DNA of 64,000 nucleotides from Schmidtea polychroa. Its lineage: Eukaryota. Both the position numbers and the translations under genes were made by a program. Position 1 is the stretch's first letter. Every line of letters starts with the position of its first letter. Positions 1 to 40,534 of this stretch are shown piece after piece. The DNA lies in the NCBI GenBank assembly GCA_044892525.1, contig CM097885.1, positions 28,832,001 through 28,896,000 of the forward strand, read 5' to 3'. The notes beneath the pieces were generated by a model. That model saw nothing but the letters and a program-made list of their open reading frames with translations. It had not been told where the DNA came from and did not search any database.

Positions 1-2464
1 TCAGCCCTTGTCAAAACATTTCCCAATTCTTCGTCGGTCACATCTGCACTTGTCAGTATGGCATTCATAGCTCGCTTTGCCGATTTGATCATGGACTCAA
101 AAACTCCCCCAAAATGCGGTGCTGATGGAGGATTGAAGATCCAACTACATTGATGCTTCGACAACTCTCTTTGAGTTTTATAGTTGTCGATTACAAAATT
201 CTTTACTGTAGAAGTGGCGCCTATGAAATTTGTGCCATTGTCTGAGATCATCAATTTTGGCATCCCCCGCCTCGCTGCAAACCTCATAAACGCTCGAATG
301 AATGAGTCTGTGTCCAACCCATATGCCATTTCAATATGCACCGCCCGTGACTTTAAACATACGAATAGGCAAATGTACCTTTTATTTCTCACCTTTCCTC
401 TGCCTACTTTAGTTTCAAACGGTCCTGCAAAATCTCCTGCCGAGTGAACCAAGGCTCTAAAAGGTTCTGAAACCCTGAACGCCGGTAACGGTGCCATTAT
501 TTGACTCATTCCTTTAGCTTTTCTTTTTCTACACATTCCGCAATCTGTCTCACACTGTTTGATCATTACTTTGGCCTTCAAAATCCAATATTTTTCGTTC
601 AACACACTTAAGACATGTTGAGTTCCTGCATAATGGCTCAAACTTTCATGGCAATCTTTGATGATTAGTCTGGTGACCCAACTCTTGTCCGATAGAATTA
701 TTGGATATTTTGTCTCCCATGGTAAATTCTTTGCATGAATTATGCGGCTATTACTTCGTAACACAGTCATCTCATCTAAAACTGGTGTCAACTTTAACAA
801 ACGGCTTCTGATATCTACCCTTTCATTCTTGATAAGTCGTGCCAGGTCCTCAGAGAAAAACTTCGCCTGCTCTCCTTTAATTACATTGAGTTCCATTCTT
901 TTAAGCTCCTCAGTTGTAAGTTGTCCTGTGGTTCTTTGGGACTGTGTCGTTCTCGTGTTCAAAATAAATCGCTCCACCCAGGCCCGCACCCTGATCAATC
1001 TCTGCCATGAGGAAAAGGTTTCTACTTTGAAACAGTCCGTGTTCCCTATTCGTCTTTGCCCCTCTACACACGCCATCATTGTTATTCCCTTTCGCAACTC
1101 CTTTGTTACACTGGATTGGTTTAACTCCGTCGCTGGCCAATTTCTAGTAGAAATTTCGGTCCCTCCCACCACATGGTGCTGTTTATCAAATCCGATGCCG
1201 ATAATCCTCTTGTGATCAAATCCGATGGATTTTCACTTGTTGGAACATAATGCCATTGCCCAGGTTTGGTCATTTCTTGAATGAACCCAATTCGATTAGC
1301 TACGAATGGCTTGAATAGTCTCGAATAATTTCGAACCCAATGTATTACGTCTTTACTATCGGACCAGAACCATATCTCACTCATCGGTTTCCCGAGCACT
1401 TCTGAAACCCGTCTTGCTAATTTAACTCCAGTACACGCGGCCATTAATTCCAACCTTGGTATACTTATAATTTGCACTGGAGCTACCTTTGCCCTTGACG
1501 CAATTAACACACTTTTAGGTCCCACCATAGTTTCTTCCCGTAGATATATAGCTGACCCATATGCGGTGCTTGACGCATCGGAGAAGACATGTAATTGCCA
1601 TTCATTTTTCATTTGAGTCCTTAAACATCTCGCAATTCGCAGATCTCCGAGATTATTTGTGTCCTCTACCCACTTGTGTATTTCTTTATTCAACTTTGGA
1701 GGTAGCTTTTCGTCCCAATCAAGCCCTGACAACCACAACTTCTGAATAATCTTTTTCCCTATGATTATGAATGGGCCTAACAGTCCCAATGGATCAAAGA
1801 TTCTTGCCACTATGCTCAATACCTTTCTTTTCGATAAACATTCCTCATTCGGCAGATCTACTTGAAAACTAAATTCATCGTCTTCCGAGTACCATTTCAA
1901 ACCTAGGGTCTTGACGGCCATTGTCGTTTCCTTTTCAATATTCAGTGTTTTAGCTCGTTCTTCAATTGGGATTGTTGCCATAATTCTTTCCGAGTTGGAC
2001 AGCTATTTTCTAGGCCGCATTCCGGCATTGCCCCAAACTGTTTCTAGCCCCTCTTTCAGCCTCATTCCTTCTTCTTCAGAATCAACAGAGTCCATGGTGT
2101 CGTCCATATACGTAGACTTGCAAATAGATTCTGTCACTTTTGGGTAGTCCTTTTCAAATTTCTTTGCATTCTCTTGCGCGACTAGCTGGGCAAGGAATGG
2201 AGATGCATTAAGACCAAACACTAATCGATTAAACTCATACTTAATAATTTTCCCCCCAGTTGACCATAAAAACCGATGATATTTCCTGTCTTCAAGAGCC
2301 ATTCTTATTTGCAGATACATTTCTGCTATATCACAAACAACAGCTACGGAAAATCGACGAAAACGAATTAAAATATCAAAAACTTCATTTTGTAATTTTG
2401 GGCCAACTTCCACCATATCATTAAGTCCCACCCCATTACACCTGGCTGGCCGCATCAAACACAA
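1..2464 (-). pseudogene. BEL pol remainder (RT, RNase H, integrase), broken by frameshifts and stops
   Basis: ORFs 2003-2464 and 1121-1981, plus integrase motifs below 1140 in other frames. Confidence 0.9.
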
Positions 2465-5027
2465 TACGCACTTTCGTGGTGTCCTTATCTCTTCTAACCA
2501 CGGGAAAGTGTGGTAATATCCATTCCGAATCTCCAGGCATCATTTTCTCTTTTACAATACTTATATAATCTTTTTTCAGGTAACCATTCAAAATATCCTG
2601 ATACTCAGTTCGTAAGTCTTCCTTTACAAGCCTCTTGTTCAAACTTCGCAGTCGACTTTCTGCCATTTTTTCACTATTGGGCAAAGCTGTTGGTGACTCT
2701 TTCCATGGCACTTTTACCTCGAAATGTCCATCTACTTTCTTCATCTCAGATTTGGTTTTCTCATAAATCGCTTGGTCTTTCGCTGCAAATATATTTTCCT
2801 TTAAGCCGCTATCATCAATTTCCCAAAGTCGCTCCATCTGTCGTTGCAAATCCTCGCCATTACCGAAGAACGTTCGTATGAAATTGCTTTGATGGTTCCA
2901 AGTTCTTCCCACCGAGGTTCTTCCCACACATGTCCAGCCAAGTGGCGTTAAACGGGCAATCGGTTCATCCAACTTACCATCGATTTCTTTGAGTGCTCGT
3001 TGAAGCGTTAAATAATCCGCGCCAATTAACACTTCAACTGCCTGTCTCTCGTCTAGCATCGAAAAATGGATGCCCTTCAGGTGAGTCCACTTATGTTTTT
3101 CTCTGGCCCAATTTACTACCTTCATTTCTCCCGTGATATTTGTTACGGCCAGTGCGTTGAAGTTTTTCGTCAATCGGCCGTCATTACTAATTAACTTCAT
3201 GGTCACTGGAGTAGCCATCATTTGTTGGACATTACCTCCGATAACCCCTATCGGTGTCCTCTTTTCCACCCCTTTTAACCCAAGCTCCTTTAAAATTCTT
3301 AGATTGATGTAGCTTACTGAGCTTGCATCATCTAACAGTGCATTGACTTTTATTTTCTTGTTCCCATTTTCCAGGTAGATTGGAATTGTTCTTAAACTAA
3401 GGTAAGGTCTTAGGTTTTTCTCGTTCATCCCTTTCTGGGTCAGCATCGTGTTGTTACCTTTTTCACTCTCCTCACTAATTTGTCTTTCATGTAATAATTC
3501 GTTGTGCCTTTGCTTACATCCGGTAACCTTGCAGAAAGATTCTTTACGACATTCCTTGGCCATGTGATTTCTTTTGAAGCAATTCCTGCACAGTTTCTTT
3601 TCTTCGATGACTTTCTTCCTTTTAGGAATTGTGAGTTGCTTGAACTTGTCACATTGGTCTAGGTAATGTTGACCACCACAGTGTACACACTCTGATCTAT
3701 AGCCGTTAGAGTTATTCACCTGTATAACTGTTCCACTTTTAACTCTGCCATCTGGTTGCCCCGTAAAATACGTCCGACCTCCAGGATTGAATCTTTCTCT
3801 TCCCCTAGACACCCCTTCTACTCTTGACCCATCATAAGCCCTGGTGCTTGGTTTAGTCCCATACACAACCTCGTTAGTGGACCTTAGGATCTCCGCTTCT
3901 TGTTGTATCCATCTTCTCAAATCCTCTATCGTCTCCCGCAATTCCTTTTCTATTTTGTCTTTTTTCCATTTATACACAAGATTCGTCGTTAACTTGCCCA
4001 AACACTTTTGAAAAAGATAGCCAGTCTTTAACTCGGATTCTTTCCCAGTGGATTTAAATCGCACGGTGACCGTTTCTAATAATCCAACAAATGAGTCTAG
4101 ATCCTTCAAATCTCCTTCTCGAATTGGCCTGAACTGTTCCATCTCCTCTAACATTGATAAATATATCCTTTCATCCCTACCATATCGCCTATCCAACTTC
4201 TCTTTTGCCATTTGATAAGCCTCTGCCGAATATCCAAGATTTTCAATTAACTTTAATGGCTCTCCGTGAAGGTACTTGTGCAGGTGAAACATCTTTTCAA
4301 CCTCATCACCTTCCGCTTCGTCAACATATGCAGTAAAAGCTGCTTTCCATGGTTCGTACTCTTTCATCTTGCCTTCAAAAACAATGATTGTAATTTTCTG
4401 TAGACTTTCCAGTTTTCTTTTATGCCCGGAATTATTCTTCTTGATGGTATCCTCATTCACATTTTCCTTCTCTTCCATAAAAGATTGATTTGCTTTTCTT
4501 TCCATCAATGCCCCAATTATTTGATATTTTTCCTCGGTCTCTTGCAGGTCTTTATCTAAGATTGCAGTGATGTCCAATCTTTGCAGTTTTTTACTGATTG
4601 TTCTCAGATCCCCTAATTCTTCATCTAGACTCTCCTTTTGATCTTCATATTCCGCCAACCATTCGCTAACATCCTTCCCATTTATATCATTGAGAATCTT
4701 GTTTCTTAATCTCGTTAATTTTCCTTTTTTCATTCTCTTTTTCCACAGTCCGTCTTCTAAAATCTCTTCGTCATTGCCGCCGCACAGCCTGAGTGACAAA
4801 TGAAGTGTCGACCCTACTTGTATCCTATAATCATTCAATCTTCTTTTATTTTCTAACTGCTTTCCTGCGTATACTAACATTTGATAATTTTTCGGAATTC
4901 CTTCTTTGTCCTGGATTTTTCCTTTTATCTTTTCAATTGTGTCCTTCCATTTAACGTCCAGAGTAATTGTCTTACCAGTAAGAGTTTTGACAAATATTTG
5001 ACTTTCCCATCGCAACTCAAAACCCAT
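2436..5027 (-). CDS. Ubiquitin-Gag-protease-RT(N) part of the BEL polyprotein
   Basis: First in-frame ATG next to the ubiquitin is at 5027 ([16 protein letters not shown]). Ubiquitin spans 4776-5000, followed by Gag, the three-knuckle cluster and the aspartic protease. Confidence 0.85.
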
Positions 5028-5358
5028 TACCCCGCTCGCCCTCACCCTTGACTCAGCTCTGTTCTTTACCCTGTTCCCCTGGCTTCCCCCTTTAAAAGAG
5101 TGCTGGGGCCCATAGCAGCACTTTCCCACGCTCGGTAGGGAAGGGAGGATGTTTAATTTTACAAAAGTATTATAATATATACATAATATGCGTGACCACA
5201 AACAAGATTTTTTATAATACATATTAAATACCAAAATATTATTAATTACAAAAATATTATTAAACACATAATAAACATAATATTTACATAATATATATAA
5301 AACCAAAAAAGACATTTTATAATACATATTAATTACCTTGTTCCGGCTGGCTAGCCGG

Positions 5359-5376
5359 AACCACGCTCTGCTACCA
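5359..5376 (-). promoter_or_regulatory. Primer-binding site, initiator tRNA-Met type
   Basis: Minus strand reads TTCA|TGGTAGCAGAGCGTGGTT, which is complementary to the animal tRNAi-Met 3' end and follows an LTR-type CA. Confidence 0.85.
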
Positions 5377-5449
5377 TGAATTAACCGAATTGAACGAATA
5401 ACAATTTTATTTGAAATAGACTCGATGGAGTCGGCTCTATGTGGCAACA

Positions 5450-5972
5450 AAATTTCACAGCATTGAATGATCTGTTCGAAATCATAATTTACATAAACAT
5501 CATCACTTAAGTCATAATCCGATTTCATAAAGTCTAAGTTTGATTTTATCACATCGCTCGTTATAGTAGAAGAAATTCTTCCTGTAGCCACAATGCATAA
5601 ATATCTCGTTTCCTTTGCTAATTGAACTCCTGATGGATTGAGACTCGCAATATTGCGTAACTTGTAAATCATAGATCCGTCAACATCAACCATAGATGAG
5701 GCAATATATTGAATTTTGTTATCATCTAATAAATTCCAAAACAATTTTGTATTAGAAGGCATTTCTACAGAAGATTGTAGTAGATTACATTTGACCACGA
5801 GGAGCGCAAACTCACAATTTGCTGTCCGATTATTTGACAATACAGAAGGGTAATTAATATTTGATGGAATTTTTCTTAAAAACATCTCAAAATCTTCAGG
5901 ATTGGCACAAATCTCAATTTTGCTATCAGAATCATCACTAAAATGATATTTCATCCATGAAATAAACGCCAT
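5450..5972 (-). other. Unidentified coding-like segment upstream of the BEL element
   Basis: About 175 codons of protein-like composition, in frame with gag. No family recognised. Confidence 0.35.
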
Positions 5973-7035
5973 TTTAACAAAGGAACTTGTTCCAGAACCG
6001 AAAGCCCTTTTTAAACTTCCACCAATAACAAACCAATTTAAAACAAATCAATTCGAATTAAAAATCCAGAATTTCTGCCAAAAACCATTTATCATATAAA
6101 AAATTAACAATTAATCAAAACCTACTTCTCGCGTCTGTGTGCGCACACCAACAAGAATCGGTCTAACCAGACCGCGCACACAGACGCGATAGAAAAAAGC
6201 CAAACCACACCCACAACTATATGCGTCTGTGTGCGCCCACAGCCAACAACACAAGGATAGTAAAAGGCGCACACAGACCTTTCCATTCATACTGGAAACT
6301 TTATTTGGACAATTACTTTCTCTTCTGCAACGATTTTCTTTAATTTTGCCATTTATTCTACATTTCTTATCGTATATCTTTCATCTGTGACAGACAAAAC
6401 ACTTGTTCACCCAGATAAAAAAATACTTTAGCTATTTGCATATAATATACTTCCTTAAGTAGGATGTCTCATAAATACGTTTCATTACGACGTTGATTAA
6501 TTTATTTCTTGTTGGTCTCATTTTTAAAAAATATAAACTCCTCATCTATTTAATAAAGGTTTGACTGTCTTAGCAGGCAAAAAAAAACTCCTTTATTTAC
6601 TGTAGACATTTCCTATCTTTAAGGACCTTTCCTCAAATCATATCCAAATATCAGTTAGATGTTCACCTGATACGTACATGAATTTATAAGTAATATTTAC
6701 AAATTATTATTAGAAAACCCCAAAATTTAAATGGGAAATCCAGACGGTAACTCATCAAAACTGACAGGCCCATTGTCAAAAAGATAAGATACTGTTTAAA
6801 AATATTTCACAAAAGAAATAAATTGTTGTAAGAATTATTTTATTTGCAATCTACTGAAAACTTGCTAAAAACGAAATAATTGGATCGAGTGCGTTGAATT
6901 TATCCAAGGACTACTCAATAAATTAAACAATTTTTCGAGTTTGCCCTGAAATTCTAATTACAATTAAATTATTAGATTCCTACATACTAAAGAATAAAAG
7001 CCTAAGAAACATTTCTAAATTAATTTAAATAAAAT

Positions 7036-8906: not shown

Positions 8907-11863
<2,957 letters not shown>

Positions 11864-13239
11864 TCCATCTATATGTCGAATCAGACAAGAAAACATAAAT
11901 TTTCTGAACAAATCCGAAAAATGCAACTGCCTCAGTGCAAGCGTCATCAGCTGCAACCCCAGACAGATTCAGTGAGTGTGCCATAGAAGGAATATAGGAC
12001 GCCCTTTTCATGATTGCTGGCATTGTCGTATGTCTGACCTCTGCGAAAAAGTTTCAACAATTGTATCGAAGAGATGAATACCGGTGTGTGACGAAATTTG
12101 AACAAATTTTAGAAAACGTTCAACAGGTTGGCCATTACTTTTCACATAGCTAACCGTGAAAGTTAGTTGATCTGTGTATGATATATCAGGCGTAGAATCA
12201 ACACTGAAGAAAAAATACTTTGTCCTTTTTAATTCATCAATAATAGCTTTGATGACTTTTCTGGCCATTAGTCCCACAAATTCTTCATAAGTGGTGGATG
12301 ATAGGTATGATACGATACCACGACCAGCATTTCCATATGTGTCAATATGTCCCGCAATAAATGAATCATATTTGGCTAAGTACTCCAAACAACCCAAAAG
12401 GTTTCCATTATCTGCACTTCCAAAGGTTTCTGAAGATCCTCCACGCAATGCGAGGAATTTTATTGTTGAAACAACTCTCTTTAAGTCTTCTCTCCAATAA
12501 TTGCTTTGCTTATCAGCGTGCTCCCAAATTGATTTGTCCAAAGTCTGAACATTGGATATACGCGTTGCATAAGTAGTTAGAGCGTATCTGTGATCAGCTG
12601 ATTTTTCGTGTTGTTTAAGTCGATTTATGGTACTCCAGCTGTCAAATCCTGTAGTCGCAAGAGCAGACGAACTGTTTATCGAAAACAGTTTACATACAAA
12701 ACAAAAACGCATCCAGATGATGACGAATACAAAAGCCAATGCCTTTGAATTTTTTCTCCATTGTGAGATTGTGAATAAAATGCTGAATTGTTCAGTTTTC
12801 TGTTACAATTGGCATATTTCCTTAACGAATTTGCATAAACTCCATCACGGTTTGCACACGCATTGGGCCCAGCGTGGAGTCAATAATTCACAAGATTACT
12901 ATCCAGTACATCCCACAAGGCTGGCTCAGTTACAGAAATAATATCATGTTTAGTAGTGTCAAACAAAGTTAGCGTATTTACGATTGATTCAGGCTGGATG
13001 ATATTTAGTTGTTCTGATGAAGAAGTTATTTCATTAAAATCGTTTTCTTGCGGCGAAAAATCTGTTGCAGATGAACTTTGTAGTAATTTCTCAGTATCAG
13101 CTAATTTTATTTCAACGGATTCACTATAAGTTTCAGATCTTTTAACAAACTTATCGATTCCGCCACGTTGCAGTTCTGCCGCCTTTTCAAAAAGACGTTT
13201 TCTTTAACGTTTTTGTGCACCAGATTCAAATTTTTTCAT
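11864..13239 (-). pseudogene. ZMYM1-like (DUF4371/TTF zinc finger) hAT transposase fragment
   Basis: MKKFESGAQKR start, FCFVCKLF, HEKSADH, LALRG, DNGN, SVDSTPDIS..DQL, ERFL, AHSLNL, STYRW. Frameshifted and cut off at the ATC array. Confidence 0.85.
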
Positions 13240-22419: not shown

Positions 22420-22660
22420 ATATATATAACAAAATGATTGCATATTAAAAGAGGATTGTTCTGCAGGACTGAGAATGAAAAGCTGTTTGCCATTTCTCTG
22501 GTAATAATGATTTACTTTATTATCTGCTATTTCCTCTACATTCTTTAAAAAATCAAATATGCAATTTAACCCAATAAATTGAAAATATGAGGAAGCTCCG
22601 CTAAAATTGTTTGTCAGCAAAAGTCCAGCTGAAATCGGTATGTTTTTTTTCGGTAAGTTT
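22420..22660 (-). pseudogene. Fragment resembling the N-terminal region of Polinton pPolB
   Basis: YFQFIGLNCIFDFL...LSPAEQSSFNMQSFCYI parallels ISPEQFTEYENSTICWL at ~44250. Confidence 0.5.
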
Positions 22661-24810
22661 TTCCTGATCATCTTGTAATTTTTCGATATTATTTACCGTT
22701 TTAATTGCCATGAATATTGTATTTTCGCAATTTTTCTCATCTTGATCAACATTATTTTCTAAAGGTATTCTCGACATAGCATCCGCATTTGCATTTGACT
22801 TTCCTGTACGATACTTTATCTCGAAATCATATTCTTGCAACGCAATTGACCACCTAATTAATTTACTGGCCGAATCTCTGTGCTTCATTAGCCATTGTAA
22901 CGGATTGTGATCCGTAAAGACAACAAATTTTCTGCCTACTAGGTATTGTCGAAAAGTGGTTATCCCATATACCAATGCTAACGTTTCTTTTTCGATTGTC
23001 GAATAATTTTTTCATGAGGTTTCATTGATCTGCTGGCATAAGCAATTAAATGATCTTTTTCCCCTTCTACTTGCTGTCCTAATACCGCGCCTAATGCGAA
23101 ATTACTGGCATCTGTCATTAATGTAAACGGTTTTTTATAGTTCGGACATCTTAATATCGGCTGTTTTATTAAGCTTTCTTTGAGTTTATCAAACGCTTCC
23201 TGCTGAGCTGTTGTCCATTTAAATTTTGCTTGCTTTTTCAATAACATGTTCAAATGTTGTGCGACATGTGAGAAACTTTTAATAAACTTTCTGTAATAAC
23301 TAGCTAATCCCAGAAATTGTCGAACCTGATCTACATCCTTGGGACTAGGATATTTCTTAATTTTCTCTACATTTTCTGGATTTGGTTGCAAACCTCGACG
23401 CGAAATAATATGACCCACATAAACGACTTCAGATTTCCCCCATTCACATTTGGAGGGTTTTATTTTTAAGTTTGCTTCTAACAATCTCTTGAATACTGTT
23501 TCCACATCCTTCAAATGTTCCTGAAAACTATTCGAAAATATTATAATATCGTCAATATACACTAATGCATGTGGTATATCGCGCAAAACAAAATTCATAC
23601 CTCTCTGAAATGTAGCAGGTGCTCCTGTTAATCCGAATGGTAACACGTTAAACTCATATAGACCCTTCCCATCTGAAAATGCAGTTTTCCTTCTATCTTC
23701 CTCTTTGACTTTAAATTGATTGTATCCTTTATTAAGATCTATTACCGTAAAATATTGCACCTGCCCCATTTGATCGAACATTTCCTGTGGAACAGGAATA
23801 GGATATGTATCTTTTCTCGTAACTTGGTTCAATTTTCGATAGTCGACACAAAATCTTAAATCACCGTCCTTCTTTTTAACTACTACTATTGATGATGAGA
23901 ATGGTGAGGAACTTATTATATTGAATTCTTTCATTGCTTTGATTTGCCGATCACTTTCTTCCTGATGTATGTATGGTATTCTATACGGCCGTAATTTTAT
24001 TGGGGTTTCGTTGAGTAATAGTATTTCATGTTCAATCACCTGAGTGAGTCCCAGATCATACTCATGTTTTGCAAATACATTTCTATATTTCTTTAATAAT
24101 AAACCAAATTCTTGTTTTTGCAAATCCGTTAAATCTTTGCTTGTGATCTGAGGTTCTTTATAAATTTTTATATTTCTCGGTAACTTCTGAGCTTCCTCTG
24201 ATTTGATTTTTGTTAATTTTCCCAATTTGGTTTTGGGCTTTATTTCAACGGATCTTGCACTATAATTCGCTATTCTAACTGGTACTGACTTATTTTGGAC
24301 TTTCACTACTTCGTCACACATAGGCACATCGTATTTTTCAACCAGCTTTTGATTTGGCTCAAATATGTACTCCTCATCTGAGACCCTCAAAGTATATTAC
24401 TTCGCTTTTTGATGGTACTTCCAATGTTTGGTTTAGAAATACCTCTCCTACTTCAGGCACTATTTCACCCATTTGTCCTTTTATTAGTTTTCCAGTTCTC
24501 AGATCAAGAGAGATTCCATGTAGTTGCTCCATGACATCCATGCCAATAAGACATTTTACAGGACTTTTTCTCATCACTGATACCCAATGAATTATTTCTT
24601 GATCTCCAATTATCAGTTTAACTTCTAATTTTCCAACAATATTTAGTGCATTATGTGACATTGATTTAATAATGTGATTCGTTGGTTTTATTTTGGCTCT
24701 CTCCTGATACGTCAAGAAGCTTTCCGCTACTATAGTATGACTTGAGTTTGAGTCTAATAAAGCTTCCACTTTTCTCTTGTTAAACTGTATGTTTATTCGA
24801 GGTTGTTTTC
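22660..24810 (-). pseudogene. Gypsy pol: protease, RT, RNase H
   Basis: ALLDSNSSH (degenerate DSG), RFCVDYRKLN, LPFGLTGAPATFQ, YIDD, FLGLASYYRKFI, TDASNFALGAVL, FTDHNPL, NANADAMSR. Frameshifts near 24385 and 23000. Confidence 0.95.
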
Positions 24811-25229
24811 CTCCTACTACTGTTGTCATTAGTGCATAGCTGCATGGTAGACCAAGCATATTCTTTCTTTCAATTTCAGCACTCGTTGGTTCAATCTTCT
24901 CTAATTCTATTGTGATATTATCGACCGATTTCATCTCTTTTAGTTTTTCACTTGGATATACTGGTGCTGTTGGTCTAAATGTCGGGGTGTACCATCTACT
25001 AAAAGTATCAATACCGCTTAATTTTGGCATTGGTTCAAGCAAGAACCTAGACTCTGGCTCTACTTTACTCTTTATTACACTTTTTCGAAAGCATTTATGA
25101 TCCAATTCCCCGTTGTTGTTATCATCATTATGATCGTCGTTTTTATCTTCCGAGTGACACGTAGATTCCTCACTTTTCCGGCCATTTCTGAATTGTGCCC
25201 TTACTCTTGCCATTTCTTTAAATTGATGA

Positions 25230-27033
25230 TCTGTAATAAAGAATCTAGCCAACAATGGAATACAACCAATAATTTATTTCCATGACCATCCCGATATTGC
25301 ATATATTCGATGTACTGACAACATTTGCGACACTACCACCTTTGCCGTTATCACAATCACGTAAATTCCAATTAAACCTGCACATGCTTGTCCCAAAAAC
25401 ATGAACCTGCCCCAAATCTTTTCCATCGTTTTATATGTAGCTCGTTTGAAATGATCAGGTGTTAGCAAATTTCCGTAATTTACTGTTCCTTCTCCATTCG
25501 GTAATACTGTGTCAATCATTTCTGAAATTATCCGTTCCTTTTTGGATGGAAACAACAAATTCCTTTGAGCTTCTTCGATATCTTCGCTTGCATACAAGCC
25601 CATTTGTGCCATTTTGTTCAGTGATGTGAAATTTATCAGGTATTCTAAATTTGTTAATTCTAGTTTGTCTGGAGTCTTGACCCCACGATAGTCTGGTAAG
25701 GCTATCCATGAGTCGGTAGCTAATCGGTATAAAGGGGCAAATAATCGATTGCATTGCAAAAGTTTTGGTTTAGTTTGTTCATCAAGCAAGATTCTAGTTA
25801 TCGGTTCCATAAATCGTACCTTTCCCCCAAAGCTTACTGGTAATTCGTTCGTACATTTTTCGTATTTGGCAATTTTCACTGTGACTTCTTTGCATTTGTA
25901 ACTGTATAATGCTTCTCCAAATATTCTCGCAAACACTCCATTTTCTGATATTAGCATAGGTGCTACTAAATTTGGATTCGTAATTGCCATCGCCATCCGA
26001 TTTCGGAGAATCTCTTTATTCAACTTGCAATCGTTCAGAATCATTTCTCTATATACATTTTCCATGATGTTTTGACTAAAATGAAACAAATAATCAATTT
26101 TATTATTAAAATAATGAGTAAGTTTAATGTCATCTTTATGAATTTTAATTTTTGCTTCTTCCACAACATTTCTAGACACGTGAACACCTTTATAATTTGT
26201 CACATATACCATTCGACCACATTTATTTGTAATTTCCTTTTTTATAAATCGCATTCCATCTGCTGGTAACGTAGACATTAAAACTGTTCCCATTTATTTT
26301 GTCCATACTGGGGTTGATTTAATGGTATTATTTGGTCTATAATTCATATTGAAATTATCTGGTTTATCTCTAAACTGTTCTCCTACTAGTTCTTTAAAGT
26401 TCATAGTTTTTAAGTGCGCTAAATTACACTTATTTGTTTCTACATTATAAACAAGAATCGATTCCCCTGTTTGACAATGTGTTTGTTTCATATAACAGAA
26501 TGGATGAGTTTTCTTCTAGCACTACTGTTTGCTGAATAATTTTACCGTTCATTTTATATGGTTCACCTTCACAGTCGCCATTTGCTTTCATAACTCCCTT
26601 TACAATTATTGTTTCTCGTATCCTATGATTCAATTTTGCCTTTAAACGAATTTCTGGACTTATTTTTAATTCTCCTGTTTGAAATGCTGCTAGACAGTTT
26701 TCTGGAAGCACCTCGACTGGCCTAGGTATCGCATGCATTTTTATGAGTGACGTATGGCTCCATTTACCACAATAGAATACAAATGTTGTATGTTTGACAA
26801 TACACTCTCTCACTTGAGTTCTTCGCAAATCAAACTCTTGATACACATAATATTTTACGTCATTTTCTATTTTAAAAACTGCTCGGATACGCACCTGGGC
26901 ATTCCGACATATCTACTACCGAATAAACTTTTCCCATTTCAGTTTGGGAACAATCGTACGCAACTAAAGATGATATCTGTGTAATTATTGCACAAAACGT
27001 ATTCACCATAAACATCGCCCATGGAAATATCAT
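25230..27033 (-). pseudogene. Chuvirus-like (class III fusion) envelope glycoprotein
   Basis: Signal peptide then AYDC..YSVVDMSECP, FYCGKWSH, C.G, NDCKLNKEIL, GEALYSYKCKEVTV, CTNELPV, FMEPITRIL, C-terminal TM FMFLGQACAGLIGIYVIV and GWSW. Two frameshifts and two stops. Confidence 0.85.
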
Positions 27034-28947
27034 AGTTTTTCTTAGTTCTGGCTTAACTCTTTCATTTACTCGTCTTTGTGGTGGACTCATTTCTTGCTTC
27101 TCATTTTTCTTTTCTGTTAGAGATGAACACAGTGTTTTCCAACCACCTTTTTCGTTTACCCAGCTCATTAAATATTCGTTTACTAGCCGGGCAGCGATGT
27201 CTATCAAATTTTCTAACTTGTCTGACCTTGCGAAAGTATGCGTTCCAATTTCTAAAACAACATAAGTTAAAGCTATTATTATAACTTCCTTATTAATTTC
27301 ATTTTTTGTCAAATTTTCAATTACTGATCTCTCGCAAAATGTATTCTCTTCGCCAAATTTCTGCATCACTTCAGGAAGCCTATTCTTGATCTCTTTAACT
27401 ATTTCTTTCAGTTCATCATCTACCTCTATTTCTATGTCGAACATTGGATATACTGCTTTAACGAGGTGTTTCAACATTTGCTTAGTTTCGTCGACGTCTT
27501 GTTCCAGCCTCACTAAATATTTCTTTATTTCATATAAAGTTCTAACTTTCTTATTTTTGATTTCACCATTTATTTCGCCTTCGGGTACAAGTGGCTCTCC
27601 TTGTACGTCTGTTTCAGTGGACTGATCTTTGTTATCAAGATCTTTTTGCTCATCATCACTAACGATTTCATCAATTTCTTTATTTCCCTTAACTTTTTCA
27701 CCTTGTTCCTCTGTGTCAGGCTTGTTAGACTCAATATTTACTTCTAAACTCACTCCTTTTACTACTACTATATGGTTCACTAAATATCCCACTCGTCCAT
27801 CTCGGATCAAATATCCATTTTCATCCAGCTCTTGTGGTACACACCCACAATCATATAGGTATTCATCATCGTCAAGTTCTTCACCTTTGTACATTACTAT
27901 AATAATTCCATCTTTTCCCAGCGTTTCAGCCGCTCTCTTCCGCAATTTTCGGACCTTTGCACACCAATGCTCATCTACATATTCAGTTTTCCCATATCCC
28001 TCATAATCTAATGCTATAAAAAATGGCTTTAACTCTACTCTTGCCTTTCTAAGCTCCTTGCCCAATCTTTGCAATAAACTTCTTAATAACTTGGCATATC
28101 TGGTTTTCACATGTAAATATGGTCGTATTGCATTCACTATTTTTAGTTTATCGTTTTCCTCCATTTCTAATTTCTCAATAATCTGTAACTTCTCATTGAT
28201 TTCATCTTCATCTCCAATATATAACGTATCATTTAATTCCTCTAATATCTCTCTTGAATTCCTTTTGTCTATTATTTCACTACTCATTATTTCATCATTA
28301 GTAACTACATTTTCCATTTTTAATTCATTTGTACTTCCTGGTATAAATCCGCAATCTACCAAAAATTCGTCATTTTCTAACAATCTCTCATTAAATCTCA
28401 ACTCTATCATGCATCCTTCCTTTTTTTCTTTTAATTTATTCTTTAAATCATTTACACAATCATTTGCCTCACAACGACAACATAATACACTTTTATCAAT
28501 CTCGTTTACTACTTCCACAAAAATGAAATCTAACTCTGTTTTCTCTCTCAAAGTTTTTCCAAATATTTTCATTAATTTTTTAATTTCGTCTTTATACTTT
28601 GGATTCATATTATAATAGTTAACGCACAAGCTAATTACACTTTTTATCTTTCTCATACTCAAAGATATTTGACTTAATTCTCTTAACGATTTGATTACTT
28701 TAGCCGACTCTATTTCATTATTTCCAATTAGTTTTTCGATTCTTGTCATTATCATTGTTGCTTTTACACTTTCTAAATCATCTTTTATAACTCTCCTTTT
28801 CGATTGCTTTTCATTTAATTCCTCTTGCGACTCATACATCATGTGATTATTGTAGTCCTCTTCTGATTCAAACTTTGACATCAATCGATCCAAACGTCGA
28901 CCCATTTCTCTCACTTCGCTTTCAATTCTTTCATTAAAATTATCTGG
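27034..28947 (-). CDS. Accessory region: two helical+ubiquitin-like modules and a Bcl-2-like domain
   Basis: UBL-like LRFNERLLENDEFLVDCGF and MYKGEELDDDEYLYDCGC. BH1-like NEINKEVIIIAL and BH2 LMSWVNEKGGWKTL. Confidence 0.7.
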
Positions 28948-30212
28948 CTACATTATCCATCTGCGGTTTGTCACTCTGAAACCTAATCGATTTTGGAATT
29001 TATCCATATTTCTTGGACATGATCTGGCCATCTGTCCATAACTTCTGCATGAATGGCATTGAATTTGTCCTTGTAGATTTACTTTATCTCTCTGCGGTGA
29101 TGGTGATGTTGATGTTGATCTTGACCTGGCAAAACAATTTCGTGACACATGCCCTTTTCTTCTGCAATTAAAGCATTGCAAGTTATCATTAGTTCTCTGA
29201 TCATTAATGTTTGCTTTAGTGAAACTTTTCGCACCATTTCCTTTTAACCAATCGGGTCACATTTGCCTTGGACTACGTTGTACATTATTTTTGGACCAGC
29301 ATTGATTGCTGTCATGTCCCATTCTTTGGCAATTATCACACTGAATCGGAATTGGGCTTCTCTGTACTTTATTTTTAAACCAGCATTGGTTAACATGGTG
29401 TCCAATCCTTTAGCAATGACTGCATTGGATGGGACCTTCCTTTCTATCTATTTGAATATCTGTTGACTTGTTCGACTCAAATTTGGATCTAAATTTTGGT
29501 GATGGACTACTTGTTTGTTGAAAACGATTGTTTCTAATTGGGGTTATTGCTCTTTCGCTTGCGCCTGAGATGACTGCAAACGACTCTGATTTCGACTGTG
29601 TGCTTTTTAAATTTAGCTCAATTTTCATTGCCTTTTTGATCAATTCATCAAAGTCATTAAAATCAACATAGCATAAAGCCTTTTTAATTTCTTTCTTTAC
29701 TCCTGACAAGAATTGATCCTGCAGTAATTCTTTTACCTGCTTTGCCATCTCGGCCTGTTCTGGTTTCACTTCGAACGCTTTCTCTGCAAGAGTTGATAAA
29801 TGATAAGCAAACTCACTTACCGATTCCTCTGGCTTTTGTACGCGGTTATAGAATTTCTGTAGCATGACCTTTTTATATCCCCTCCGATTAATTTCGTGGC
29901 TAGCGCGTCTTTCAACTAGGTCCAGTCATTTGCTACTAATCTTTTATCAATTTGTTGCCACGTTTCTCTGGCTGCTCCTTTCAGGTATAGCGGTAATCTT
30001 TGCACCATTATCGATTGGCTCCATCCATAGGCTGTCGCATACATATAGAAATCTGCCATAAAATCGACAAATTCCAATGGATCTCCACCGTACTGATCTA
30101 CAGGTAGTTTTTGACAACTCGCATAATCATTGCCTTCCTTGCTGTTGCCCACCGTGGACACAGGTGTTTCATCATTGTTATTTGTATTATTGGTTAGTCT
30201 TTGGGTACTCAT
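28948..30212 (-). pseudogene. Gypsy gag with four CCHC-type zinc knuckles
   Basis: LPLYLKGAARE, RVQKPEESVSEFA, DQFLSG. Knuckles CSHC*RIGHHVNQC, CDNCQRMGHDSNQC, CFNCRRKGHVSRNC, CHSCRSYGQMARSC. Confidence 0.92.
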
Positions 30213-30565
30213 TAAATTCTCTATTAGTGTTTGGCTTCTCAATTTATAAAATGATCGGGTCAACCCAGGCTTTAAAGTGTTACAATTACAAAATTTACCT
30301 TTCGTTTTAATTTTGACTTTTCAACAATCAATCGCCACAAATTTTCCCACTTTGCTTCAATAATAAAATCACCACTTTAATAATTCTTGAATGATGTTCA
30401 CCACTTTCAAATAAACGTTTCACTTCAATATTTATTTATTTAATTATTATCTTTTTCCAAATTCTTCGATACTTTACCAATCTCAACAAATTTTCACCGA
30501 TCTTTTTTACTCCTCGGTATCACTCAAATATTATCACAATTTCAACAACTCTTCACCGACTTTTG

Positions 30566-35019: not shown

Positions 35020-35559
35020 AAAATGGGAACAGAATTTTATAACAAAGTTTTTAAAAAATTTTTGCAAGAAAATGATATTATATTATATTCAACAGCAAAT
35101 GAAGCAGTCGTAGTTGAAAGATTAAATAGAACATTAAAAAATAAAATGTGGAAATATTTTACTGCCATTTGAAAACAAAAATGGAATAATGAATTATTAC
35201 AAAGGATGGTAAATGAATATAATAATTATGTACATGGCTCTATAAAAGAAACACCTTTAAATGCTTCTACAATCCCTGAAAGAGTTAAAGAAATAAATAT
35301 TGAAAATGATGTAGAAAAAGGTTTTATGATTTTTGATACAACACTTATAAAACCAAAGTTTAAAATTGGTGATAGAGTAAGAATATTTAAATATAAAAAT
35401 AAATTTGGAAAAGGATTCACAGCAAAATGGACAAATGAAATTTTTATTATAAATAAAATAAATCATACAATTCCAATGACATATGGTATCATCGATTTAA
35501 ATAATGAAGAAATATTGGGTATATTTTACAATAATGAATTACTGAAATCAAGTTTTTAA
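35020..35559 (+). pseudogene. Polinton retroviral-type integrase, C-terminal half
   Basis: GTEFYNK, VVERLNRTLK, YNNYVH.SIKETP, KPKFKIGDRVRI, KGFTAKWTNEIF. Confidence 0.9.
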
Positions 35560-35588
35560 CATTTTTCCAAAATTTTAAAAACAAGTTT

Positions 35589-36340
35589 TTAAAACCAGCT
35601 TTTCTGCCTCTCATCCCTTTCTCTATCCAAATAAATATAATTTTTTTTCCAATGATTAGCAACAAACACATCAAACATGTACTTCTCAGGTTCAACATTT
35701 GAAAATAAATCACTATAAATCATATTCTTGTCACGCTTATCTAATTTAAAAAAGATTAAACAATTGGAGTTGTTTCTAATTGAATTTTTATCCAAGGCAT
35801 AATAAGTTTGAGAGATGTAAATCACATTACAATTATTATGACGTCCTCGAGTAAAATAACTTTTTTAAATTTCTTGATTTTTCATATTTACAACATCAAA
35901 TATAACTAGATTCTTTTTATCTTTGGAAAGAAAATCACAATGTACTACATTTTCAGGTTTGTTGGAAAATAAAACTTGTATTGATTCATCACTAATATAA
36001 TCATTTTTATTAATAATATCTGACTCGAAAATTTCTTCCTTATAGCAATCAACCATATCACATGGATGATATACTTCTTTAGAACATCTATATTGATTTT
36101 AAAAATATCAATCATTCCTTTTTTAGTTAATTTATTTTCAAATCCATATTTCAAAAGGTGTAATTCTGGTTGGTTTATAGTTGTAGAATAAAATATTAAA
36201 TTATTATAATCTAAAAAACCATCCCAAGTAACATTTTCAAAACAAAGTACATTCTTTCCACACCCTGAAGATCCAACAATTAACAATCTAAAATTATCAG
36301 GAAAAATTTTATTATTAAATTTACTTTTGTGTCTTTTCAA
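35589..36340 (-). pseudogene. Polinton A32-like packaging ATPase
   Basis: Walker A IVGSSGCGK, Walker B LVIFD, TRGRHNNC..YISQTYY, IRNNSN. Frameshifted. Confidence 0.9.
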
Positions 36341-36377
36341 AAATTGGTTTCCAACTAGCCATTTTTATTAATAAAAA

Positions 36378-36716
36378 ATGACGACTGAAGAATCTCTAAA
36401 AGAATTAATAAATTCAGACAAAAATAAATCTGTAGTAATTGATGGCAAGAAATATTTTGTTACAAAAGACATCAAGGAGAAAGTTCGTGAGAAAATTAGA
36501 GAAGGTGGGATTTTACCGTTGGCTGCTTTAATACCAGCAATAATTGCAGGTTTATCTGGTGCTGCTGGAATAGCTGGAGGGATTGCAACTACAGTTCAAA
36601 AATCTAAAGAAGCTCAAAAAACTGAATTAGAAAAACAAAAATTACAACAGGAAATAAATCAAATAAAAGGTTCCAAGCTTGGAACAGGTTTATACCTTGG
36701 ATCCCTACAAAGGTAG
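36378..36716 (+). CDS. Adenovirus pX-like core/membrane-active protein
   Basis: EGG|ILPLAALIPAIIAGLSGAAGIA resembles adenovirus pX (GGILPLLIPLIAAAIGA). GxGLYL motifs follow. Confidence 0.7.
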   Translation: MTTEESLKELINSDKNKSVVIDGKKYFVTKDIKEKVREKIREGGILPLAALIPAIIAGLSGAAGIAGGIATTVQKSKEAQKTELEKQKLQQEINQIKGSKLGTGLYLGSLQR

Positions 36717-36938
36717 AGGTTTGAATGATTTTCTCAAAAATCAAATTTCATCACCTGAATTATCAACAAAAGAAAAAGATAGTTTAAAAAAAATATGCAA
36801 GTCTATGAAAAATGGTTGTATTTGTAAATCAAAAGATGGTAAAGGTTTATATTTGAAACCTTTTTCAATCATAAACCTGTTTATGACTGAAACCTTGAAA
36901 GAACTTTATTAGTAAAGTTTCTTTACTAATAAAGGAAC

Positions 36939-37840
36939 ATGTACCATAAAATGGTATATAAAATGGTATATAAAATGGTTAATGAAGAAAGGTTAGCTCT
37001 TTTAAAAAAATTACATGTTGAACAAGGCAAGTATAACAAAAATGATTTAAGTCAGCATACTGAATCCATAATTTTAAATGAATTAATGATGGAACAACAA
37101 CAACCAACTCTTAAAGCTTTGAAAGAATTAAAACCATCTTTATCCAACCACCCAAGAGAATTAGAACATAGATATTTAAAACCCAAAGAATTAGAATCAT
37201 CTAAAGATTTACAATTTTGAGATATGGAACCAATTGAATCAATTGAACAAGATGAACAAGCTATTAGTCCAATAGAAATTAATCGAGATATGAAACCATA
37301 TATTATTAACACAGAACCTAATAAAAATTAGACTGCAGAAACAATTAAACCAACTTTTTCCATTGAGAATGGATTTCAATTTATCACAATTAATAAACAA
37401 AGATTTCTATTGTATGATAATAATAGTGAACCATATATTCGTTCTAAAAATAGTTTTGAAGACCAACGTATAAATATAAAATACACAAAAGATTTGGATC
37501 AATTAATTAAAGGATATTCTTCAGATGATAAAAATGAAATTAAAATATATTTAGATTTAATAAAAATGGTGGGAGGTAAATCAAATGCAAAACATATACA
37601 GACTTTAAAGAATTATATAAATCAAAATGAAATGGGATATACTGTCAACGAAGGAAAAGAATGGATTCTATTAATGGAAAAGATTTTATTAATCTTTGTA
37701 TTCAACTAAGAAAATTATTAGCAGCAAAGAAAGCAGGTCATAATAATTTGAATGGTGATATTTTAAACATGTCTAAAAAATTATTAAAACATGGAATAAT
37801 TTCACAAGATAAATTTAATAAATATAAACGTAATTTAATA
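36939..37840 (+). pseudogene. Conserved Polinton protein ending in the LLAAKKAGHNN motif
   Basis: Fragmented ORFs. The same motif (LRKLLAATKVGH) occurs in the third Polinton at 57561-57803. Confidence 0.6.
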
Positions 37841-37997
37841 AATATACACTTAAAGTTTTTAAATTTTTTCCAAAATTTTAAAAACAAAACGACCGAGTAT
37901 TCAATATTGGATTTTTTAAAAACATTTAGAATTGATACAAAAACAAATTTTGATTTAAGACTATGCAAATTATTTAAATTCACCAATTAAAATATTA

Positions 37998-38330
37998 ATG
38001 AATGATGAATTGCACAAGATTGGTAAAACCAAGAAAAATAATATAATTATCAATTATCAAAACTCTAATGAAAAAGGATCTCCCTGGGTTGGGGTTTATA
38101 ATAAAATTATATATTTTGATTCTTATGGAATTAAACCAACACAAGAAGTTGAGGAATATTTGGGACAAGAATATATTTATAATACTTAACAAGTACAACC
38201 CGATAATACTAAAATATGTGGAATTTTGTGTTTATATGTTTTGTACAAATTAAATAATCTCGACAAACAAGAAAAAGAAAATATCAACAGAATTTTATAA
38301 ATATAATCCAAGAAATATATAATGATTTAA
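37998..38330 (+). pseudogene. Polinton adenain protease
   Basis: IINYQNSNEKGS.WV, YFDSYG, YNT*QVQ...ICGILCLY. Confidence 0.85.
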
Positions 38331-38403
38331 AAATATTATTTTGATTTATTTTGATATTAAAATCTATAAAAATGGAAGAAAGTTGAAAAAAATGGAAAAT
38401 ATA

Positions 38404-39149
38404 ATGTCTGATAAATATTCAAGAACCCTATTAATTAATTCTACCGAATCTGATTTTACAATAAATTTTGAAGGCTCCATAAATTTAAATCAGAATTTAA
38501 ATTATGAATTAGGATTATTATGATTTATTTGTTACAACACTGTTTTCAATATAAATATTAATAATAATAATTTTACTACAAGTAATGAAATAGGACAAAG
38601 AAAATTATAACAATTGAACCAGGGTCATATAAATTAATAGATTTAAATAAAAAAATTTTAAAGGAAACAAGTGGAAATGTAGAAATAAAAGCAGATTTTC
38701 CAACATCACAATGTATTTTGACAATAAAAAATATTACACTTAGTTTTGATAATTCTAGTTTCTTTCATACTATTTTGAGTTTTGAATCCAAAGAATATAG
38801 TGGTATTCCAAATATTGCAATTATAAAATCCACAAATATTATAAAAATAACAAATACAAATTCAATAAAGATAGAGTGTAATTGTATAACAAGATCATAC
38901 AATAATGGAAAACAAACAAACATTTTATATTCTTTTCCATCAAATACTGTTAGAGTGGGATACAAAATAATCGAAAGAATGAATCCTCCAAATTATTTAC
39001 ACTTGTGTAGAAAAAATATATGTAATATTAATTTTAAAATTGTTGATGAAAATGGACAAGTGATTGATTTTAATGGTGAAGAAATTTCATTTTATTTGCA
39101 TTTGAAACAGGTGTATATTTTATTTGCATTTGAAGCAAGTTTAAATTAA
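38404..39149 (+). pseudogene. Polinton minor capsid (penton)
   Basis: YELGL, YNTVFNI, IECNCITRSYNNG..ILYSFP, GYKIIE, IVDENGQVIDFNGEEISFYLHLK. Confidence 0.85.
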
Positions 39150-39166
39150 AAATTATTATTATAAAA

Positions 39167-40191
39167 ATGAATTATGCTCCTCATAATAAGTATGAAATAT
39201 ATAATGATGGATTAAATGTTGAACAAGTATTATCTCTTACAGAAAAGAAATATGTTAATGAAGGGGGTGATTCTATGAAGGGTGATTTAAAAATGAATGG
39301 ACACCAAATAAAAGAATTATCTTGGCCAATTAATGAAGGTGATGCAGTTAATAAAAAATATACTGATTTAACAACAACAAGAATTGAAAGTTCATTAACA
39401 ACAAAATTTGATTCAATGGGAACTACGGTTAATGCCTTGATAGAATCCAAAGTAAATTCTTTGATGGAATGCAAGCTTAATAATATTAATTCTTTGATGA
39501 AATATAAGCTTAATAATATCGAACAGCGATTTAATGAAAATTTATTAAGTTACAAAGTCAGTTAACTGAACAAGTTGTAAAATTAAATGCTGCCATATTA
39601 AATTCTACAGATAAACAAATTATGAATACTAAATTTAATACAATATATAAGACAATAAATGAGATAATTAGATCATTTAATAAAAGAGTTTCAAATTTAG
39701 AGTCTCACACAACACATATTAACCCTACACACATCATTAGAAAAAGAGCTGCTGAATTACAAGAGAATTATGTATCATTACCTAATACATATAAATATTT
39801 AACAGAGCCAATTTCAATAACAACAAATAGTAAAGAATGGTCTTGTTTAATGATTGTAAAAATTATTGATCCATATTTCTTTTTATTTACTGATGATGAC
39901 AATGATCAAACAATGAAATGGTTCGTGAAATGTGAGTATAATAGTAAGCTTAAAAATGATGATGTTATAATGACTAGTTATGATTTGTCACATGGGTATT
40001 GGCATGATAATACTGAATCGTATAAAACAAATAAAGTCAAAAATAAGAATATTAATTTTGCTAGTTCACTAGTACATTATATAGATTTAATATTTTATGA
40101 TAAAAGATTGATGCTAACGAGGTTCGTAAAGCGTTGTCCGAGTTGTATAAAGATGTGCTCACATCAAGACCATGTGATATACGAGTGTTGA
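39167..40191 (+). pseudogene. Putative Polinton fiber-like protein
   Basis: GGDSMKGDLKMNGHQIKEL..P....DAVNKKY tail-fiber-type motif, then a coiled coil. Located after penton. Confidence 0.55.
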
Positions 40192-40534
40192 TACCACACA
40201 GTAAAGTCTTATTTTAAGAGCGTTGATAAGATACTTGTACCAATAATTCTTGGAAGTATTTCAGCTGGAGATTTATTCTTGACTGAAGTTCTCTCTGATT
40301 CATACACTGCAAAAAAGAAAAGTTTATATCGTGAAGTATGTTCAACAATAGATATTGGAATAGCAAAATTAATTTTATTTCAATTAAAAGCTTTGGAAGA
40401 TGGAGTCTTGACGAATGATGAAATTTTAAAATCCAATAAAATAATTCAAGATATAAAAGATGCAAATCAAAAAAAATCAAAAAAAAAATGCACGAGAGAA
40501 ATGGTTAAAGAATAATTAAAACTTTTATATATAT

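Follow-up and report, generated by a model that had tools for sequence, protein, structure and literature searches.

The question raised by this locus is why a retrotransposon should carry a ubiquitin-family domain directly in front of its Gag protein. We analyzed a 64,000-nt stretch of Schmidtea polychroa DNA (contig CM097885.1; hereafter the window, whose numbering is used throughout), at the start of which a long terminal repeat (LTR) retrotransposon, here called the Ub-Gag element, lies on the minus strand and extends past the window start. In this element, a ubiquitin-like domain (UBL) ending in Gly-Gly is followed directly by Gag, and the frame encoding both is open from inside the putative 5' LTR. 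The reading we prefer, with a probability of about 0.5, is that the captured UBL would act as a spacer cleaved by the host at its Gly-Gly, which would fix the N-terminus of Gag regardless of what is translated upstream.

The ubiquitin-derived domain and its element

Judged by its encoded domains, the Ub-Gag element is a BEL/Pao-type LTR retrotransposon. The Pfam models for ubiquitin, DUF1759, a zinc knuckle (weak), and a protease (weak) share one frame and are followed by RVT_1, Peptidase_A17, and an integrase zinc finger. The matches to DUF1759 (E 4.7e-14) and Peptidase_A17 (E ~1.1e-46) are those of a BEL-type Gag and a Pao RNase H, and all 55 database matches to the Gag region carry at least one of PF03564 and PF05380. 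The order of protease, reverse transcriptase (RT), RNase H, and integrase is that of BEL/Pao elements, with the protease and integrase models scoring under the cut-off. The coding features are as follows.

4776..5003, minus strand: ubiquitin-derived domain, 76 residues, ending RLCGG (Pfam ubiquitin, E 2.9e-22)
3490..4775, minus strand: BEL/Pao Gag with N-terminal helices, DUF1759 capsid region, and zinc knuckles (Pfam and homology)
2436..3489, minus strand: aspartic protease region and start of RT (DUF1758 and Asp_protease_2, both under the cut-off; alignment with the related element L127, described below)
1..2539, minus strand: RT, RNase H (Peptidase_A17), and integrase (RVT_1, E 2e-11; Integrase_H2C2, E 1.8e-4; open reading frame lists)

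The preliminary description of this DNA had reported a minus-strand ubiquitin-family domain, downstream of the primer-binding site (PBS) and followed in frame by a BEL/Pao Gag (NDEE...). The Pfam matches and the PBS at 5376-5359 bear this out, and Gag continues in frame directly after RLCGG at 4776. The extent first given for the domain, 4776..5027, holds at the 4776 end only; the domain starts at 5003, and 5027 is a Met eight codons upstream.

Canonical ubiquitin was represented by three intact units (P0185, P0113, and P0081), two further proteins having been dropped for broken units. The window domain is identical to this reference at 53 of 76 residues and changed at 23. It keeps K48, K29, K11, K6, Q49, R72, L73, and the Gly-Gly, and it carries M1S, R42M, I44V, K63V, V70S, and R74C, each of which occurs in none of a comparison panel of 80 viral-contig ubiquitins (56 distinct; pairwise median 92%). 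Of the 22 positions at which it departs from the commonest residue, 19 carry a residue unseen in the entire panel, and the net charge of the domain is +8, compared with 0 in 77 of the 80. The retention of K48 and Gly-Gly and the changes at residues 44, 63, and 74 had been described correctly, whereas the label near-canonical does not suit a domain with this identity, this charge, and the additional changes M1S, R42M, and V70S. In the panel itself, the codon after position 76 is not a stop in 78 of the 80 sequences (L001-L080), so that most have C-terminal extensions.

An AlphaFold model predicted the fold of the domain with a pLDDT of ~86-93, a low-confidence linker from the Gly-Gly onward, and long helices after the linker. 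The modelled domain superposed on ubiquitin chains at ~1 A rmsd in Foldseek, and L73, G75, and G76 lie beyond the last strand of the fold. Pfam, the predicted model, and Foldseek thus agree on a beta-grasp fold with a C-terminal Gly-Gly, as in the ubiquitin family; the LRLRGG tail, R42, the I44-V70 patch, Met1, K63, and the near-invariant sequence of canonical ubiquitin are missing. On this model, the domain is a UBL that derives from ubiquitin and keeps its fold, with binding surfaces that have changed. NEDD8/Rub1 has Ala at residue 72. We rejected a NEDD8/Rub1 identity because R72 is present and the best 60 sequence matches and best 50 fold matches are ubiquitin or engineered variants. A viral source was likewise rejected, the best of the 80 viral-contig ubiquitins, at 68-72%, being no nearer than host-type ubiquitin, as was a remnant of a second ubiquitin upstream of the domain (3 of 49 residues identical).

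The layout is not confined to the window copy. We compared the contigs of 4 sequencing runs, out of 24 listed, with the window and found the ubiquitin region covered in all four. One X2 contig (record 23) covers 4692-4877 with 24 differing letters (87% identical) and no gap across the ubiquitin-Gag junction; it is a diverged copy with the same junction. Between 5000 and 5360, the other contigs contain three indel events, all of them net multiples of three (among 12 of 20 indel rows listed). The window copy itself has a frame broken near 2440, 2004, and 1130 (open reading frame lists), and these breaks look private to it because the contigs of other copies differ at or beside those sites. Contig depths were not taken as copy numbers. 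Summed contig depth rises 3-7 fold from pol to gag at ~3485-3510 in three of the four runs, and X7 has a loose contig end at 3485; this step hints at gag-only copies or a shorter RNA, contig depth being unable to rank the parts of the element.

The open frame upstream and a distant sister

A stop-free frame of 1203 codons (6047-2436) runs through the putative 5' LTR, the PBS, the leader, ubiquitin, Gag, and the protease. Ubiquitin had been placed at the N-terminus of the fusion; 348 open codons in fact precede it in the same frame. In the 396 nt upstream of ubiquitin, the three frames contain 0, 9, and 14 stops, and only 1 of 5000 dinucleotide shuffles was stop-free, in a test made somewhat generous by a 105-nt duplication. 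The features of this region, from the leader outward, are the following.

5099..5122, minus strand: hairpin whose 10-nt loop ends in the palindrome GGGCCC, a candidate genome-dimerisation signal (kissing-loop)
5151..5336, minus strand: AT-rich leader (14.5% GC) with the 105-nt duplication (repeat D20), stop-free in 17 of 5000 shuffles
5359..5376, minus strand: PBS of the initiator tRNA-Met type, within the open frame; 18 of 18 nt complementary to the 3' end of tRNA-Met(CAT) (L119 and L180)
5377..6392, minus strand: putative 5' LTR, with a CA/TGG junction before the PBS and TG at 6392; the outer end is uncertain (~6300-6392)
5379..5972, minus strand: LTR-borne open frame ("cargo") of 198 codons from the ATG at 5972, in frame with ubiquitin and Gag
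6075..6125, minus strand: candidate 51-nt GT-AG intron in the 5' untranslated part, skipped by one X2 contig (CT..AC ends on the plus strand)
6085..6320, minus strand: LTR core with two long hairpins (-82.3 kcal/mol, z -5.1; 0 of 200 shuffles equally stable)

To find relatives with the same layout, metagenome contigs were scanned for the PBS (20 of 64 parts). The scan yielded 117 loci, 52 of them with at least 1000 nt downstream; a Gag profile matched at 11 loci and a UBL at one, L127. This element has 1141 stop-free codons from upstream of the PBS through leader, UBL, Gag, and protease, and its proteins are 34-39% identical to those of the window element. Its UBL (Pfam ubiquitin, E 1.2e-9) is identical to ubiquitin at 18 of 76 residues and to the window domain at 22 of 76. 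It ends in Leu-Gln-Gly-Gly, and L73, G75, and G76 are among its 18 retained canonical residues. It has H36, Gln at 48, G72, and Q74, and hence lacks K48, R72, and R74; a Gly follows its Gly-Gly, and its net charge is +2. Four substitutions relative to canonical ubiquitin are common to the window domain and the L127 UBL (permutation p 0.02), and the linkers after the Gly-Gly are unrelated in the alignment.

The leader of L127 is likewise open in the Gag frame: its three frames contain 0, 9, and 5 stops, none of 5000 shuffles was stop-free, and it holds a 54-nt duplication. By contrast, the UBL-less relatives with the same PBS (L139 and L149/L110) have a stop in the Gag frame, at the PBS or immediately past it. 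Upstream of the PBS, L127 carries a 30-nt tandem repeat (3019-3425) that would be read in the Gag frame as about eight 10-residue units, and the contig ends there. The window leader at 5151-5336 would encode a hydrophobic stretch with no acidic residue among 66; as a candidate transmembrane helix, the leader has a hydropathy of 1.28 in the window and 1.76 in L127, which is partly an effect of U-rich codons. The leader hairpin (window 5099-5122, L127 2591-2614) has an identical 10-nt loop in both elements and keeps all seven stem pairs, four of them through two-sided changes. This covariation, from two sequences, was reached by 35 of 500 shuffles, and the hairpin alone is no more stable than shuffles (z -0.8 and -1.9). 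The peptide CYGPQ is common to both elements because the hairpin with its palindromic loop end is conserved. Splicing of the leader, from a donor-like site at 5336 to in-frame acceptors at 5103 or 5079, was unused among 15 of 28 contig joints listed.

A tree of 20 rows was built from the window element, L127, and 18 of 55 relatives; 19 relatives had been hand-picked, of which P0005 was lost by length. The window element and L127 were sisters (support 93/88; path 1.75 changes per site) within a clade supported at 100/99, whose other four members (P0001-P0004) are UBL-less. A ubiquitin-like match was found in none of 75 database relatives. A protein search for close Ub-Gag relatives returned a best match at 32% and no listed ubiquitin domain among 55; further searches found the fusion in 0 of 530, 0 of 53, and 0 of 600 candidates, and one more returned none. 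A cluster search returned DUF1759 clusters only, at 0.81. One domain search is uninformative on fusions, the best 120 of its 8000 matches being polyubiquitins. From these sequences, the UBL was likely gained once, long ago, in an ancestor common to the window element and L127, and the layout would be old because so distant a sister has it. The recurrent capture that the preliminary description had suggested is not needed for this lineage. Three points pull the other way: the sister grouping falls under the starred support threshold, the window row has an unusual letter composition, and the domains are unequally close to ubiquitin (70% in the window, 24% in L127), so that one capture requires unequal rates or a later refresh.

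The segment 5399-5957 recurs with 12 differences within a 4726-nt X7 contig otherwise unmatched to the window, and two X1 contigs depart from the window sequence at 5389; both fit swappable LTR content. BEL/Pao elements have two LTRs of 0.2-1.2 kb and a target-site duplication; in the Ub-Gag element, one putative LTR of ~1 kb lies within the window, the position of the 3' LTR being outside it, and contig cover drops to near zero beyond ~6320. The core at 6085-6320, whose hairpins are made from a repeated GTCTGTGTGCGC word and had no Rfam match, is common to many other contigs, which diverge on both sides of it; loose contig ends lie at 6117-6128 and 6196-6204 in X1, X2, or X7. The candidate intron contains two upstream ATGs (6095 and 6088), both of which splicing would delete. 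The cargo frame gave no Pfam or PDB match and no credible homologue, and its structure model (pLDDT 34) is unusable. Its three matches among 1.84 billion proteins were rejected as summed repeats in unrelated repetitive proteins, and an Atlas lead to an Mrr-like nuclease (scores 0.80-0.83, low recognition) is not credible. No tRNA matching the PBS was found in 47 viral loci, and the 64-kb window yielded no Rfam family and no tRNA gene.

A proposed cleavable spacer and its alternatives

In the reading that we prefer, translation would begin upstream, in the frame that is open from inside the putative LTR across the PBS and leader, and a host deubiquitinase or ubiquitin-like protease would cut after the Gly-Gly. 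The cut would strip the upstream extension and leave Gag with one N-terminus. The UBL would have lost its conjugation and signalling surfaces since capture while keeping its fold and tail, and the LTR would be freed to carry changing coding pieces, namely the 198-codon frame in the window and the 10-residue repeat in L127.

The position of the Gly-Gly argues for this reading. Homology of Gag to the UBL-less P0004 begins 13 residues past the Gly-Gly, and the first Met past it, at +15, lies inside a helix of that homology; Gag would therefore be made from an upstream start, and, the frame being open from the LTR, it would carry a long, variable extension. The Gly-Gly stands right before the proper N-terminus of Gag, at a junction predicted to be flexible (AlphaFold). 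This is the placement of the ubiquitin before NS3 in pestiviruses, which is a host-cut processing signal (PMC8310069 and PMC13517609). FUBI, which is 36% identical to ubiquitin, is cleaved by USP16/USP36 (PMC10611586), and its cleavage depends on its Gly-Gly (PMC8354635). The preliminary description had proposed a processing leader that defines the Gag N-terminus. A processing signal is supported, indirectly, by the P0004 homology at +13, the flexible junction, and the survival of L73, G75, and G76 in L127; a leader in the sense of a first domain is not, the frame being open from the LTR.

Several points weigh against cleavage. On ubiquitin, the residues contacted by USP36 include R72, R74, R42, and I44, and most ubiquitin-specific proteases (USPs) are kept off FUBI by the combination of a nonpolar residue 74 and a hydrophobic residue 42 (PMC10611586). 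With C74 and M42 in the window and G72, Q74, and H36 in L127, ordinary USPs may not cut, and any cleavage that does occur is probably selective or incomplete. Retention of the Gly-Gly is known from two sequences, the window and L127, and at the background rate of L127 (18/76) two given residues would both survive in about 6 of 100 cases. Furthermore, a Met in good context stands at the domain or eight codons ahead of it in each of the two elements (window 5027, L127 residue 284), so that production of Gag might not require the upstream frame. Rather doubtful is a broader scheme in which a host ubiquitin-like protease would perform the first step of Gag maturation, the LTR would be a swappable coding cassette, the hydrophobic leader would tether the uncut precursor to membranes, a selective enzyme would free the capsid protein, and the host cell type would set where particles mature.

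The main rival, which we regard as possible but not probable, is that the UBL stays attached as an N-terminal domain of Gag, a folding aid or a basic matrix-like surface, with translation started at the adjacent Met and the Gly-Gly a leftover. The Met in both elements, the loss of contact residues in both, and the charge of +8 in the window agree with this, as does a core in which changes are sparser than on the surface (2 of 18 core positions changed, both conservatively; p 0.06). However, the L127 UBL has a charge of only +2, an A-rich strand (41% A) favors Lys and Asn regardless, and attachment would leave the stop-free leaders in both elements and the survival of L73-x-G-G unexplained. The element's own aspartic protease might instead cut the linker, with the UBL as a folded spacer. 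The frame includes the protease region, the linker past the Gly-Gly is of low model confidence, the L127 tail is a poor USP substrate, and belpaovirid polyproteins are assumed to be self-processed (PMC8742986); we nevertheless consider this improbable, because it leaves the retained Gly-Gly without a reason and because the two linkers show no relation to each other.

Equally little credence is due to a degron, in which either the uncut fusion would be a degradation tag or the cut would expose an N-terminal Asn, so that the half-life of Gag would limit particle numbers. An N-terminal Asn is destabilising, and uncut ubiquitin fusions are degraded. The window domain retains K48, K29, K11, and K6 and is followed by Asn, but in L127 residue 48 is Gln and a Gly follows the Gly-Gly, and the I44 patch, which is read by proteasome receptors, is altered. 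Release of a variant ubiquitin that would disturb host ubiquitin signalling, also raised in the preliminary description, is very improbable. The predicted fold is intact, the window domain retains K48 but not K63, and several domains related to ubiquitin and apoptosis occur in planarian Burro elements. A working ubiquitin is nonetheless hard to reconcile with the changes at R42, I44, V70, and R74, with the loss of Met1, and with the lack of K48 and R72 in L127; moreover, the domain would stay joined to the upstream peptide unless translation began adjacent to it. There remains the suggestion that the ubiquitin is a one-off insertion or a passive passenger, to which the decay of the window copy, with its three pol breaks, lends some color. 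This is refuted as a one-off by the diverged contig that bridges the junction and by the same layout in L127, alongside coverage in all four runs, and we give it almost no weight.

Neighboring elements and comparison with known systems

Elsewhere in the window, ~1.5 kb of pure (CAT)n at 10360-11865 lies between the second copy of a near-identical 266-nt block pair and a hAT-like transposase fragment. The fragments at 35173-45617 have ATPase-, capsid-, and DNA-polymerase-like frames and presumably belong to a Polinton/Maverick-type element; at 42630-43963 they are split by another element, which has inverted ends of 181 nt and a frame resembling a transposase. Two long frames at 49461-51791 (plus strand) are ones that we take to resemble a DNA transposase.

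At 22601-30320 (minus strand) lies a decayed Burro-like Gypsy element with Gag knuckles, two UBL-like stretches without Gly-Gly, a Bcl-2-like domain, a Monjiviricetes-type fusion glycoprotein, a protease, and an RT. The order of UBL, Bcl-2-like domain, glycoprotein, protease, and RT matches the Burro layout, for which a Ubi2/SUMO-like motif is already published (PMC6431247). The preliminary description had noted a second LTR element with UBLs; the stretches are present, albeit weak (Pfam E 0.0023, under the cut-off) and without a terminal Gly-Gly, and they represent this different, known Burro feature rather than a sign of recurrent capture by this lineage. Burro/GYPSM1, a planarian LTR element, thus resembles the Ub-Gag element in having a ubiquitin-like motif in its polyprotein but differs in being Gypsy-type, with the motif after Gag (PMC6431247).

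The Belpaoviridae (BEL/Pao) profile comprises a non-coding stretch after the 5' LTR, tRNA-Arg or tRNA-Gly primers, and no ubiquitin domain (PMC8742986). The window element shares with this family the order of DUF1759 Gag, zinc knuckles, protease, RT, Peptidase_A17/RNase H, and integrase, and an 18-nt PBS after the LTR. It differs in its initiator tRNA-Met primer, in the UBL before Gag, and in the stretch between the 5' LTR and gag, which both here and in L127 lacks stops in the Gag frame. The primer type was taken as descriptive, and the element called BEL/Pao-type, because the UBL-less BEL relatives L139 and L149/L110 share the same PBS. The word ubiquitin does not occur in the available portion of the BEL/Pao survey by de la Chaux and Wagner 2011 (PMC3118150).

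Cytopathic pestiviruses (BVDV Osloss, CP1, and CP Rit) carry a captured ubiquitin in the polyprotein directly before the partner's N-terminus, where host hydrolases cut, and likewise have other captured coding pieces upstream of it; these are repeated independent insertions in single RNA-virus strains, with demonstrated cleavage (PMC8310069, PMC13517609). In contrast, the window domain is drifted, lineage-wide, old, and in a retroelement, and its cleavage is inferred. FUBI-eS30 is also a drifted ubiquitin-derived domain that keeps its Gly-Gly before a partner and has a nonpolar residue 74 and a hydrophobic residue 42 (PMC10611586, PMC8354635). It is a host ribosomal fusion with known enzymes and Pro at 49 (PMC10611586), whereas the window domain keeps Q49 and sits inside a longer frame; L127 differs again. 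LTR-mediated retroposition, as in Bs1, captures mRNA by template switching, often in frame and including in a Pao element (Tan et al. 2016, PMC5131818). The captures described there are internal retrocopies flanked by the element; in the window element, the putative LTR itself holds coding sequence, which runs in frame with Gag across the PBS and UBL.

A literature search, with Repbase, Grohme 2018, most subscription papers, and supplements outside its scope, found no report of a ubiquitin-Gag BEL/Pao element. This analysis adds the account of drift at individual residues, the statistics on the open frame, and L127 as a distant sister. In the usual view, the Gag of an LTR element starts after a non-coding leader and is processed by the protease that the element itself encodes. 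The window element and L127, at 34-39% identity, have a frame open through LTR and PBS and a Gly-Gly-ended UBL at the start of Gag. If a host enzyme cuts there, the arrangement would be the stable equivalent, in a retroelement, of the pestivirus ubiquitin signal; it would also make a little-studied family dependent on its host, and LTRs could try new coding pieces without harm to capsid assembly.

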